A stretch of DNA of 64,000 nucleotides from Longimicrobiales bacterium (GTDB lineage Bacteria; Gemmatimonadota; Gemmatimonadetes; Longimicrobiales; Gaopeijiaceae). The translations under genes were made by a program, and so were the position numbers. Location of the stretch: positions 224,001 to 288,000 of the forward strand of contig JAWLHJ010000005.1 of assembly GCA_041690395.1 (NCBI GenBank), read 5' to 3'. Shown in pieces: positions 10,687 to 17,488 of this stretch; the stretch's first letter is position 1; every line of letters begins with the position of its first letter. The notes beneath the pieces are model-generated. The model ran no database searches. It was not told the DNA's origin and worked only from the letters and a program-made list of their open reading frames with translations.

Positions 10687-11817
10687 ATGACCGACCGTAT
10701 CGAAGCGGCGCCGGCTACTGGGGCCCGTATCTCCGACTACGACTACGAGCTCCCGGACGACCGTATCGCGCGTTATCCGGCGGAGCACCGGGACGAGAGT
10801 CGGTTGCTCGTGGTCCCTCCCGAGGACGGCGTGCCGTTCCGGCACCTGCGCTTCAGGGACGTCACCGAGCTGCTCCGACCGGGCGACCTCCTGGTCGTGA
10901 ACGAGAGCCGGGTGAGGCCGGCGAGGCTACTCGGCCGGAAGCCGACCGGAGCGCCGGCGGAGATCCTGCTGTTGGGGCCGGCGGATACGGTGCGGGAGCG
11001 GGACGGTGGCGGGCCCCGCGACGGACCCGACGACGACCCGCGCGACTGGGTCGCCCTCGTCCGCCCGGGTAGCAAGCTCAAGCCCGGCCGGACCGTCGAC
11101 GTGGCCGACGACCTCACCGTCGAGATCCTCGATTCCGCGCCGGGCGGCGGGCGGGTGGTGCGCCTGCACACCACCGGCTCCGTCGAGGCGGCCATCGAGC
11201 GGCACGGCCACATGCCGCTCCCCCCGTACATCGACCGGGACGACGAGCCCCTCGACCGGGAGCGCTACCAGACCGTGTACGCGCGCGACCCCGGCTCCGT
11301 CGCCGCCCCTACCGCCGGCCTCCATTTCACCGACGAGCTCCTCGCACGAATCGAGGCGATGGGCGTGCGCCGGGCTGCCGTCTCGCTCCACGTGGGCATC
11401 GGCACGTTCCGGCCCGTCGAGGCGGACGACCCCACCGAGCACGAGATGCACCACGAGACCTACTTCGTACCGGAGTCCGTGGCTGAAGCGGTGGCCGAGA
11501 CACGCGCGGCGGGCGGCAGGGTCTGGGCGGTGGGCACCACGGTCGTGCGCACGCTCGAGGCGGCCGCCGGGCCGGACGGGCAGGTGCGCCCGGGGCCGGG
11601 CTCGACCGACCTCTTCATCCGTCCGCCCTACGACTTTCGGGTGGTCGACGCGCTCATCACCAACTTCCACCTGCCACGCTCCACGCTCCTCATGCTCGTG
11701 GCCGCGCTCGGTGGGTACGACCGGGTGATGGAGGCGTACGGCGAAGCCATCGCCGAGGGATACCGCTTCTACTCTTACGGAGACGCCATGGCGCTGGTGC
11801 GCCGAGGGAGGCTCTGA
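10687..11817 (+). CDS. queA: tRNA preQ1(34) S-adenosylmethionine ribosyltransferase-isomerase QueA
   Basis: DYDYELP, PLPPYI, YQTVYA, SVAAPTAGLHFT, LHVGIGTFRPV, AVGTTVVRTLE, TNFHLPRSTL, YRFYSYGDAM. Confidence 0.98.
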   Translation: MTDRIEAAPATGARISDYDYELPDDRIARYPAEHRDESRLLVVPPEDGVPFRHLRFRDVTELLRPGDLLVVNESRVRPARLLGRKPTGAPAEILLLGPADTVRERDGGGPRDGPDDDPRDWVALVRPGSKLKPGRTVDVADDLTVEILDSAPGGGRVVRLHTTGSVEAAIERHGHMPLPPYIDRDDEPLDRERYQTVYARDPGSVAAPTAGLHFTDELLARIEAMGVRRAAVSLHVGIGTFRPVEADDPTEHEMHHETYFVPESVAEAVAETRAAGGRVWAVGTTVVRTLEAAAGPDGQVRPGPGSTDLFIRPPYDFRVVDALITNFHLPRSTLLMLVAALGGYDRVMEAYGEAIAEGYRFYSYGDAMALVRRGRL

Positions 11818-13433
11818 TGCCGTTCGAATCCATTGCCAAGTGGTCGACGCTCCCGGACCGCACGCCGCGCCACGCCCTCGTGGCCGGTGTCGACCTGGTG
11901 GTGATCCGGTACGGGAGCGAGGTGTCGGTCCTGTATGGTCGCTGCCTGCACCGCGGGGCGCTGCTCGGCGACGGGCACGTGGAGGGCGACAACCTCATCT
12001 GCGGGCTGCACCACTGGGACTACCGCATCGACTCCGGGGTGAGCGAGTACGACAACTCCGAGGCCCTGTTCAAGTTCGATGCGTATGTCGACGCCGACGC
12101 GGATTCGGTGCTGGTGGACGGCGATCAGGTGGCTGCGTGGGCCCGCGAGCATCCGCAGCCGTGGAAGCGGGACGAGTACCTCGGCGCGTACCAGGAGGCC
12201 CATGCACCCGACGTGGAGCCGGCGAACCCCTACATCCAGCGGCTGGCGCGCGAGGGGCTCTCCGTGCTCGGGCACCACGGACGGGTCGAGGCGATGGGCG
12301 TGCCGCGCTCGGAGCTCCCGGGCTGGGACGACATCCAGATCGTCACCGGGCAGTTCGCCAGGCGACCGCTGGCCGACGACGCGCCGGTGTCCACCGAGGT
12401 CGTTCTCGGACCGCGGGCGGACCGCCCGCTCCGGCTGGACATCCCCCTCCTGGTGTCGGACATGAGCTTCGGCGCGCTGTCCCGGGAGGCGAAGATCGCG
12501 CTGGCGCGAGGTGCGGACTGGGCCGGGACCGGCATCTGCTCGGGTGAAGGAGGCATGCTTCGGGAGGAGCACGCCGAGAACTCCCGGTATCTGTACGAGC
12601 TGGCCTCCGGACGCTTCGGTTGGTCGTTGGACCGGGTGCGCGACGTCCAGGCGTTCCATTTCAAGGGCGGCCAGGGAGCCAAGACCGGGACCGGCGGCCA
12701 CCTGCCGGGTCACAAGGTCACCGAGGAGATCGCCCGCGTACGGGGTCTGGAGGCCGGCCAGCCGGCCGTCAGCCCCTCACGGTTCGAGGAGCTGGCCACG
12801 GTCGACGACTTCCGCGCGCTCGGCGAGCAGGTCCGTGAAGCCTCGGGCGGTATTCCGGTCGGCTTCAAGATGTCGGCGCAGCACATCGAGGACGACCTGG
12901 ACTTCGCTTTGGAGGCCGGCGCGGACTACGTGATCCTGGATGGGCGCGGCGGGGGCACCGGCGCCGCCCCGCTCCTCTTCCGGGACCACATATCGGTACC
13001 GACGCTCGCGGCCCTGGCCCGGGCCAGGCGTCATCTGGACCTCCGGGGAGCGGACGACGTGTCCCTGGTCATCACCGGCGGCCTCCGCACCGAGACCGAC
13101 TTCGTGAAGGCGCTGGCCCTGGGCGCCGACGCCGTCGCCGTGGCGAATTCGGCCATGCAGGCCATCGGGTGCCTGGGCATGCGGGCCTGCCACACCAACA
13201 ACTGCCCCGTGGGGATCGCGACGCAGAAGGACGATCTCCGGGCGCGCTTCGTGGTCGACACGTCCGCGCAGCGCCTCACCAACTTCCTCCAGGCGTCCGT
13301 CGCTCTCATGCAGGTCCTGGCCCGGGCCTGCGGACGCGACGAGCTGGCCGGTTTCGAGCCGTCGGACCTCACGGCGTGGAAGCGGGAGATCGCCGACCTC
13401 ACGGGTATCCGGTACGCGGGGGTGGGTGGGTAG
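11817..13433 (+). CDS. Rieske [2Fe-2S] domain fused to FMN-binding glutamate-synthase-like domain
   Basis: Rieske CLHRG...CGLHHW; SDMSFGALSREAK, CSGEGGM, FKGGQGAKTGTGGHLP, DGRGGGTGAAP, 3Fe-4S motif CLGMRACHTNNCP; TGATG overlap with the queA stop. Confidence 0.88.
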   Translation: MPFESIAKWSTLPDRTPRHALVAGVDLVVIRYGSEVSVLYGRCLHRGALLGDGHVEGDNLICGLHHWDYRIDSGVSEYDNSEALFKFDAYVDADADSVLVDGDQVAAWAREHPQPWKRDEYLGAYQEAHAPDVEPANPYIQRLAREGLSVLGHHGRVEAMGVPRSELPGWDDIQIVTGQFARRPLADDAPVSTEVVLGPRADRPLRLDIPLLVSDMSFGALSREAKIALARGADWAGTGICSGEGGMLREEHAENSRYLYELASGRFGWSLDRVRDVQAFHFKGGQGAKTGTGGHLPGHKVTEEIARVRGLEAGQPAVSPSRFEELATVDDFRALGEQVREASGGIPVGFKMSAQHIEDDLDFALEAGADYVILDGRGGGTGAAPLLFRDHISVPTLAALARARRHLDLRGADDVSLVITGGLRTETDFVKALALGADAVAVANSAMQAIGCLGMRACHTNNCPVGIATQKDDLRARFVVDTSAQRLTNFLQASVALMQVLARACGRDELAGFEPSDLTAWKREIADLTGIRYAGVGG

Positions 13434-13449
13434 CGCTACCGTACCCGCC

Positions 13450-13635
13450 CACGTTCACCACGCCCCACGGCGCCCTCCACACGCCCGCCTTCATGCCGGT
13501 CGGCACGCTCGGCACCGTGAAGAGCGTGAGCATGTCCGAGGTCGGCGACCTGGGCGCGGAGATGGTGCTCGCCAACCCGTACCACCGCCGGGGGCACGAG
13601 CTGGTCCGACAGCTCGGCGGGCTCCACGACTTCAT
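13450..13635 (+). pseudogene. tgt: 5' fragment of a diverged tgt allele
   Basis: Aligns to tgt 16393-16587; first 54 nt identical, then mostly synonymous changes and a 9-nt deletion; no native start. Confidence 0.9.
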
Positions 13636-14044
13636 TGGGTATCGGAACGTTCCGGCCGGTGGAGGCCGACGACCCCGCCGACCACGAGATGCATCACGAG
13701 ACGTACGTGGTGCCGGAGTCGGTGTCCGACGCGGTAGCGGAGACGCGCGAGGCGGGAGGGCGGGTGTGGGGGGGGGGACCACGGTGGTGCGCGCGCTGGA
13801 GGTGGCGGCGGAGCCCGACGGGCGGGTGCGGTCCGGTCCAGGGTCCACGGACCTCTTCATCCGGCCGCCGTCCGACTTCCGGGTGGTGGACGCCGTTATC
13901 ACGAACATCCACCTGCCGCGCTCCACGCTCCTGATGCTGGCGGCGGCCTTCGGTGGCTACGAGCGGGTGATGGCGGCCTGCGAGATCGCGGTGCGGGAGG
14001 GGTATCGGTTTTACTCGTACGGAGATGCCATGGCGCTGGTACGC
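13636..14044 (+). pseudogene. queA: 3' fragment of a diverged queA allele, frameshifted
   Basis: Aligns to queA 11393-11802 (GIGTFRPV ... YRFYSYGDAMALVR); many third-position changes; net -1 frameshift in a G10 run at 13768-13777. Confidence 0.9.
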
Positions 14045-16290: not shown

Positions 16291-16332
16291 TCTCGCAGGA
16301 CCCGGGCACGATGTGATGGCCCGCATTTCCAT

Positions 16333-16338
16333 TACTTT
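16333..16338 (+). promoter_or_regulatory. Putative -10 element of a leaderless tgt transcript
   Basis: TACTTT ends 7 nt before the ATG at 16346; no SD. Confidence 0.45.
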
Positions 16339-16345
16339 CTCGCCC

Positions 16346-17488
16346 ATGTTCTCCTACCAGCTCGAAGCCACCGACGGCGCCGCGCGCGCCGGCACGTTCA
16401 CCACGCCCCACGGCGCCCTCCACACGCCCGCCTTCATGCCGGTCGGAACCCTCGGCACGGTGAAGAGCGTGAGCATGTCCGAGGTCCGCGACCTCGGCGC
16501 GGAGATGGTGCTCGCCAACACGTACCACCTGTATCTGAGGCCGGGGCACGACCTGGTCCGGCAGCTGGGCGGCCTGCACGACTTCATGCGCTGGGACGGG
16601 CCCATCCTCACCGATTCCGGCGGCTTCCAGGTCTTTTCGCTGGCGGATATCCGGCGGATCGAGGACGACGGCGTCCTCTTCCAGAGCCACATCGACGGCT
16701 CCGAGCACATGTTCACGCCCGAGTCCGTCATGGAGATCCAGCGGACGCTGGGTGCCGACGTCATCATGGCGTTCGACGAGTGTCCGCCCGGCGGCTGCGA
16801 CCGGAACACCGCCGTGGAGGCGAACCGGCGCACCATCGCCTGGCTCGAGCGGTGCCGCACGCGCTTCCGTGAGCTCGCGAACGAGCGGGACGTACCGGAG
16901 CAGACGCTCTTCCCGATCGCACAGGGGAACGTCTACGACGACCTGCGGCGTGAGCACGTGCGGCAGATCTCGGATCTGGGAGATTGGCACGGGTACGCCA
17001 TCGGCGGTCTCTCCGTCGGCGAAGCCAAGCCCGACATGTGGCGCACCCTGGAGGTGCTCGACCCCGTGCTCCCCACCGACCGGCCACGCTATCTCATGGG
17101 AGTCGGGTATCCCGACGATCTCCTGGAGGCGATCTCGCGAGGGTGTGACATGTTCGACTGCGTCGCCCCGACGCGGAACGCGCGTCACGGCACTGCCTGG
17201 ACTCTCGAACAGGGGCAGGTGAACTTGAAGGCTGCCCGGTTCCGCGAGGACACGCGGCCGATCGACCCGGGGTGCGACTGCCACGCCTGCACCCACTACG
17301 ATCGTGCGTACCTCCGGCATCTGGTGAGCGCGGGCGAGCTGCTCGCCGTCCGGCTCGTCTCGATCCACAACCTCCGCTTCCTGGTTCGCCTGGGCGAGGA
17401 GGCCCGCCGCCACGTGGTGGCGGGGACGTTCGAGGCGTGGAAGAACGACTGGCTGGAACGATACCGCAAAGAACGGAGTGAAGCGTGA
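16346..17488 (+). CDS. tgt: tRNA-guanine transglycosylase Tgt
   Basis: [60 protein letters not shown], zinc site CDCHAC...H. Confidence 0.98.

Follow-up and report, generated by a model that had tools for sequence, protein, structure and literature searches.

Gene order at the queA-tgt junction

The window analysed here (G000:C5:224001-288000, a stretch of 64,000 nt to which positions refer unless a contig is named) belongs to a genome of 4.33 Mb and 69% G+C in 7 contigs, whose top QueA matches, among genomes with a name, carry the title Gemmatimonadota. The nearest of the compared genomes is G002, at approximately 88% identity across syntenic stretches. Between queA and tgt, two housekeeping tRNA-modification genes, this genome carries two cargo genes (X and Y) and a scar in which a 5' piece of tgt (tgt') is fused to a 3' piece of queA ('queA). 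The order queA, Rieske-GltS gene (X), tgt'/'queA fusion, pyridoxal phosphate (PLP)-dependent decarboxylase (Y) and tgt, given in a preliminary description, was recovered in full, positions included (Table 1), and yajC comes directly after tgt.

In a self-search of the genome, tgt' aligned to tgt at 16393-16587 with 88.7% identity and a 9-nt deletion, and 'queA to queA at 11393-11802 with 79.5% identity and one 1-nt frameshift. Each piece occurs just once elsewhere in the genome, and the two abut with zero spacer; a genome-wide self-comparison returned 12 nearby two-copy repeats of at least 75%, of which 2 are this scar. From the intact tgt, tgt' differs by 8 synonymous changes, as first reported, and by 4 non-synonymous ones, where 3 had been counted (dN/dS 0.15), and its first 54 nt are identical to tgt. 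'queA differs from the intact queA by 55 synonymous and 28 non-synonymous changes (dN/dS 0.12), mainly at third positions (59 of 83 differences), as had been claimed. Codons 1-16 of tgt' are missing but a remnant of the tgt upstream region is present; because the TANNNT box there has kept the spacing seen before the start of G002 tgt, the 5' end was probably lost later, through a small deletion between two near-identical 7-mers. Invariant residues are broken at 4 of 93 sites in 'queA and at 2 of 52 in tgt' (0.043 and 0.039 per site, with wide intervals), and at no more than 1 in the intact genes. Given this equal rate, the two pieces died together after they were joined. The 24-mer across the junction, with 2 mismatches allowed, was absent from all 60 other family genomes.

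The fusion was also found in another sample. Evidence on siblings of this genome comes from metagenome contigs of public runs, which carry no certain assignment to one organism; missing contig cover was not read as absence, and for runs X11 and X12, with a small word share, only contigs placed on the window were used. Across the join, contig 19 of run X6 matches the window at 13591-13777 (13 differences; 45 letters on one side and 142 on the other) and continues to 14049-14818. Since a contig of another public run spans the same join, the fusion is real and no assembly error, and this answers the concern, raised at the outset, that alleles of two strains had been assembled into a chimera. Such a chimera, to which we give hardly any credence, would agree with the finding that no public run contained half of the words of the stretch and that no reads of this very strain were among them. 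However, the bridging contig differs at 13 places and is thus not the source data, and the deletion, frameshift and invariant-residue changes are unlike the genes of a living strain.

The approximately 750 nt between the scar and Y had been described as non-coding, which holds only in part: the stretch contains what is left of another gene (33 codons), a hairpin and a dispersed repeat of ~200 nt. This repeat has internal palindromic units, is present in G000, G002 and G006 and is without an Rfam match; no Rfam match was found anywhere within 10000-18000 of the window. There is no tRNA at the locus (L001), and domain, Rfam and tRNA scans bear out the earlier statement that integrase, insertion sequence (IS) and tRNA are all absent from it.

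Table 1. Features between and including queA and tgt, in window positions
Feature	Position	Strand	Basis or remark
queA, intact, left flanking core gene	10687..11817	+	NF001140, TIGR00113 above cut-off
Cargo X: Rieske (PF00355) and FMN-binding Glu_synthase (PF01645) protein, 538 aa	11817..13433	+	Domain matches
Remnant of tgt upstream region: TANNNT box (TACCGT) 8 nt 5' of first retained codon	13437..13450	+	Spacing as at G002 tgt; putative promoter
tgt' pseudogene piece, codons 17-81, internal 9-nt deletion, own-lineage allele	13450..13635	+	Self-search, codon counts, tree
tgt'/'queA join, blunt	13635..13636	+	Self-search; bridged by run X6 contig
'queA piece, a pseudogene of codons 236-372 frameshifted by 1 nt near 13771; allele from other lineage of genus	13636..14044	+	Codon counts, tree, pS
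Remnant (33 codons) of third cargo gene; 82% identity with a segment of collagen-repeat (PF01391) ORF of G001	14048..14146	+	
G+C-rich hairpin, -41 kcal/mol	14241..14283	.	Breakpoints of relatives' contigs at 14237 and 14272
Dispersed ~200-nt intergenic repeat: 1 further copy in G000, 5 in G006, 1 in G002	14354..14569	.	
Cargo Y: group II PLP-dependent decarboxylase (PF00282), 496 aa	14800..16290	+	Domain match
TANNNT box (TACTTT) 7 nt 5' of tgt ATG; predicted leaderless promoter	16333..16338	+	Putative function
tgt, intact, right flanking core gene	16346..17488	+	TIGR00430

Origins of the two pieces

The best match of 'queA among 314 family genomes is G006 (82.5% identity, synonymous divergence pS 0.39), as compared with 79.5% for the genome's own queA (pS 0.52, pN 0.09) and 79.0% for G002 (pS 0.50). 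Changes polarised to the 'queA branch number 27 synonymous and 17 non-synonymous (omega 0.23, neutrality rejected), and in a queA tree of 20 of 45 rows, the closest being chosen, it falls outside own queA and G002 with weak support. In a tgt tree (17 of 31 rows), tgt' is sister to own tgt with support of 95/86, and its branch, with 2 synonymous and 3 non-synonymous changes, is compatible with neutral decay (p = 0.38). Synonymous divergence is 8/46 in tgt' (pS 0.18) as against 55/107 in 'queA (Fisher p = 7e-5). Judging by these substitutions, 'queA is a once-functional allele from another lineage, and the scar appears to join alleles of different age and history. The preliminary view that both fragments evolved as functional genes elsewhere, for which dN/dS and phylogeny were the proposed checks, thus stands for 'queA (82% to G006, 80% to own queA) and falls for tgt', and the unequal synonymous divergence contradicts its corollary that both came from one donor unit.

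Simple local duplication followed by nothing but decay would account for tgt' alone, where 8 synonymous changes compare with 3-6 expected (P 0.02-0.3). It cannot yield the 55 synonymous differences of 'queA (P < 1e-14 even at 7% decay) or its dN/dS of 0.12, and leaves the closeness to G006 unexplained; it is refuted for 'queA, short of a later replacement of the intact gene that would itself amount to lateral transfer, and we hold it most improbable.

The own queA is 92-93% identical to contigs of runs X2, X6 and X12, like other core genes, and this favours 'queA as the newcomer of the two alleles. At fourfold sites, divergence between G000 and G002 is 0.43 in queA and 0.24 in tgt, with a median of 0.27 (31 open reading frame (ORF) pairs, a few of them shadow frames, from one genome pair). 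Because queA is so unusually divergent between the two genomes, its alleles have been swapped more than once, which tells against certainty that 'queA is the newcomer; since G000 or G002 has itself swapped queA, either side may have been the resident one. The candidate of a G002-like resident allele for 'queA was rejected, the pS between fragment and G002 being 0.50 against a background near 0.3.

The junction in sibling samples and across the family

At least three arrangements of the junction occur among the sibling contigs. Contig 26 of X8 passes directly from 13434, where X ends, to 14272, inside the hairpin, and on through the decarboxylase into tgt, free of the scar. In runs X8 and X7, 166 letters lie between queA and X. 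A contig of X2, in which the end of queA is joined over 29 letters to 13443 (with a right side of unstated length), suggests queA adjoining tgt' without X, and contigs of X1 and X5 depart from the window sequence upstream of 14237. A contig of X8 with a depth of 14.4 matches 'queA at 90% or more and lacks the frameshift; a living allele close to 'queA may be present in that sample.

Of the cargo, X has native codon usage (G+C at third codon positions, GC3, 0.91) and is located at another locus in G005. Y has a GC3 of 0.80 as against 0.90-0.95 in core genes, and had no match above 36% in 6 other genomes of the genus. Relatives of Y in JGI metagenomes reached 69% identity at best, and none of 80 loci adjoined queA or tgt. 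The block formed by spacer and Y is 97% identical to its counterpart in X1, 98% in X2, 98% and 93% in X5, 95-97% in X6, 95% in X8, 92-98% in X11 and 98-99% in X12. Core-gene contigs of the siblings are mostly 90-95% identical, below the block (mostly 95-99%), and because it is more alike among siblings than core genes are, these identities suggest a recent lateral spread of the block anchored in tgt.

For the family, 80 genomes were picked by queA similarity and sufficiently long contigs, and 61 had queA and tgt both within reach; 17 genomes without tgt in the DNA examined and 2 (G264, G250) with tgt incomplete were excluded, and 17 loci picked earlier, partly for their gaps, do not enter this count. 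The queA-tgt junction exceeds 500 nt in 33/61 genomes and 2 kb in 27, whereas the controls, which are junctions within the operon rather than a genome-wide null, exceed 500 nt in 1/61 (tgt-yajC), 0/60 (yajC-def) and 0/60 (def-fmt). This excess of accessory DNA over neighbouring junctions is that of a hotspot. The closed intervals of the survey and the earlier picks hold 156 ORFs in 68 clusters (permeases, peptidases, dehydrogenases and regulators among them), predicted by a home-made ORF caller that low-GC genes may escape. None of the 68 cluster representatives belongs to an integrase or transposase family, 20 being without any Pfam family, and the claim of an integrase-free variable site is upheld. 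In open-ended stretches 1 IS core occurred among 38 of 82 representatives, and tRNA was found in 2 of 46 loci. Separately, an array of 18 tRNA genes with an IS integrase core lies downstream of queA in G142 (L201, 9101-12851), and tRNA-Pro with a phage tail-tube-like gene (PF06841) at 11597-12977 within the 11.5-kb queA-tgt interval of G025 (L044).

Within the genus the queA-tgt interval differs in every genome. In some other genera cargo is partly common to kin, and rapid turnover is therefore not general. Within the genus DNA has also entered between ruvA and ruvB and between ruvB and queA, which makes queA-tgt one of several permissive gaps. In this genome DUF3024, PqqB-like hydrolase and sulP genes lie between ruvB and queA (7361-10651), and ~10 kb between ruvA and ruvB (G000:C5:220330-230280); in G001 both gene pairs are adjacent.

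Scars of this kind are rare, contrary to the idea that scarred tandem stacking is the usual mode here. An earlier best-match scan of the 314 family genomes scored 2 candidates per genome and overlooked the tgt of G000 itself, and scar counts were taken instead from the intervals, with short self-matches of 21-72 nt (E 1e-3 to 1e-5) counted as chance. Among 68 other intervals of at least 150 nt no tgt'/'queA fusion was found, and repeats of the queA end numbered one clear and one weak. In G264 (L182, 10742-13892) the two copies of a direct repeat of the queA 3' end (101 nt, 99%) enclose a PadR and ABC-permease pair, and the first queA copy terminates in a different tail; this is a young second scar at the same site. 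In G169 (L183, ~7860-7950) a 92-nt, 70% copy of the queA 3' end follows sugar-nucleotide genes ~6.2 kb downstream of queA. The scar is therefore a rare leftover and not a system.

Both repeats cover the extreme 3' end of queA, and the genome encodes 6 tyrosine recombinases, one beside a repeat array. These facts would suit a site-specific recombinase acting in trans, either the integrase of an element at the queA 3' end or the integron-like recombinase of the genome, that left target repeats behind. We consider this improbable. The repeats begin at differing points (409, 101 and 92 nt), that of G000 is 20% diverged and fused to tgt, and integrase families were absent from the 68 representatives, within the limits of the ORF caller and of the 20 without a Pfam family. 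None of the 6 recombinases lies on contig C5. The combination of an integrase and near-identical att repeats at a fixed site that defines integrase-driven islands was not found, nor is the interval an integron cassette array, the array repeat having no copy in the window. Elsewhere in the genome, a tyrosine recombinase followed by an array of a ~160-nt repeat to the contig end (G000:C2:762866-775800 and C1:983700-1018088; 13 matches on C2, 35 on C1 and 4 at C5 381-387 kb) resembles a large chromosomal integron, a candidate recognised from its repeats. A 106-nt, 85% direct repeat 19 kb apart on C6 (30384-30488 and 49893-49998), near the tyrosine recombinase at C6:50417, possibly marks island ends.

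A TANNNT box, which we take to be a leaderless promoter, lies 4-10 nt before the tgt start in 25/33 genomes with cargo and 4/28 without, and before yajC, def and fmt in 0-2 of 60-61. All five tested genomes of the genus have the tgt box; because three of them are without cargo, the box predates the insertions in the genus. A literature search returned nothing relevant on a TANNNT leaderless promoter. The predicted promoter is likely to make insertions before tgt harmless. A TANNNT box likewise precedes the ATG of queA by 6 nt (10675-10689), and leaderless-type starts may be common in the group.

Proposed route of capture and its meaning

We favour, at slightly better than an even chance, the reading that the scar is an additive capture that joined two queA-tgt haplotypes without an integrase, by one-step homology-facilitated illegitimate recombination (HFIR). 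The left part would stem from a version with queA allele A followed by tgt, broken at tgt codon 81, and the right part, from queA codon 236 onwards, from one with queA allele B of the G006-side lineage, a small, now decayed gene, the PLP decarboxylase and tgt with its own promoter. Incoming DNA would have entered through a single homologous crossover within one of the flanking core genes at one end and a blunt illegitimate join at the other. With an intact queA and an intact tgt still in the cell, both pieces would then have decayed, at ~4% of sites; the leaderless promoter predicted for tgt itself would let the site tolerate the insertion. Established by observation are the gene structure, its recurrence in a second sample, the differing allele origins and the variable junction; the route, its direction, the function of the promoter and the order in which X and Y arrived are what we infer. 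Few genes differ more between G000 and G002 than queA does, as expected of a recombination anchor, and the genome has ComEC and DprA genes.

Several points weigh against this reading. ComEC and DprA also occur in 10/14 control genomes and are thus little informative. The queA tree is weak, and the approximately unbiased (AU) test leaves a clade of 'queA and own queA unrejected (p = 0.075). The link between promoter and cargo is not significant after kinship is considered (independent pairs, median p 0.5). Short microhomology at the illegitimate join is a feature of HFIR, and none that convinces was found at this blunt join: the match of the 8-mer GCTCCACG, which the preliminary description placed just before the junction, stops 7 nt short of it on the tgt side, and random 40-nt windows of tgt and queA share a word of at least 8 letters with P = 0.06. 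A donor close to the siblings at tgt but remote at queA is also required, and this presupposes either that alleles had been swapped beforehand or that the 5' end of tgt was overwritten afterwards. Kirchberger et al. (2017, PMC5361080) put the frequency of the HFIR route orders of magnitude below that of simple homologous recombination. Finally, a tandem duplication or circle made in the donor, followed by ordinary recombination, gives the same end product and is not separable here, the one-sided homologous anchor and opposite illegitimate join fitting it as well as HFIR.

This last alternative is a serious one, though we rate it at below even. The join would have been made in the donor by tandem duplication of 'queA-cargo-tgt or, as in the preliminary description, as an excised circle of it, and have passed into a sibling by ordinary homologous recombination, anchored on the left by tgt' (~200 nt and the upstream region) and on the right by tgt. 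It yields exactly the observed order and agrees with tgt' being of own lineage, with a neutral-looking branch and first 54 nt identical to tgt. The left neighbours of tgt' also differ, being X in G000 and, in X2, the queA end joined over 29 letters. Duplications with illegitimate joins are commoner than one-step illegitimate integration, and homologous transfer likewise (PMC5361080, as far as consulted). On the other hand one extra event is required, no duplicated cargo or unit was seen in the 68 other intervals, and a circle from a single donor would still have to explain a pS of 0.18 at tgt' beside 0.52 at 'queA. It is conceivable, if rather doubtful, that the scar acts as a reusable adaptor: tgt', homologous to any sibling tgt start, would admit the decarboxylase block by ordinary recombination while the cargo of the recipient is kept, a replacement-type hotspot would become additive, and the scar would spread among siblings.

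The locus has counterparts in known systems. In hotspots of horizontal gene transfer free of mobile elements, core genes enclose variable accessory genes (Oliveira et al., 2017, PMC5635113); the queA-tgt junction resembles them in lying integrase-free between two conserved core genes and, as far as the one genome pair compared shows, in the raised divergence of a flanking core gene, queA. Theirs arise by double crossover in both flanks, replacing and scarless, and are defined within species, whereas the scar represents one additive event with fused pieces, and our survey spans one family plus a small number of metagenome contigs from siblings. For effector-immunity arrays of the Vibrio type VI secretion system and for Rhs loci, sequential displacement by HFIR was described (Kirchberger et al., 2017). 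As in the reading favoured here, these combine a single homologous anchor with an illegitimate end, earlier material is displaced yet retained, orphan 3' pieces remain and no integrase takes part; such arrays, once finished, spread by ordinary recombination. Here, in contrast, the anchors are housekeeping tRNA-modification genes, the cargo consists of unrelated metabolic genes, there is no selected array of like modules and scars are rare. Additive transfer through flanking recombination (PMC11375855) likewise places added genes in the gene neighbourhood of the donor, but partial duplicates of flanking genes are not discussed in the portion of that paper considered here. Literature searches, covering papers without their supplements, found none on a queA-tgt insertion site. 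The nearest case, the Pseudomonas tRNA-Leu islands (PMC2647930), also has variable DNA beside queA and tgt; it is integrase-driven, in a tRNA and outside the queA-tgt junction, whereas neither tRNA nor integrase is present here.

The class of process is already known and the cargo is ordinary metabolism. The scar is nevertheless an unusually legible record of integrase-free gene addition, with both broken ends kept, assignable to lineages and mutually datable. It also locates a site that varies throughout a family of an understudied phylum, and the predicted self-contained promoter of tgt offers a testable reason for this.

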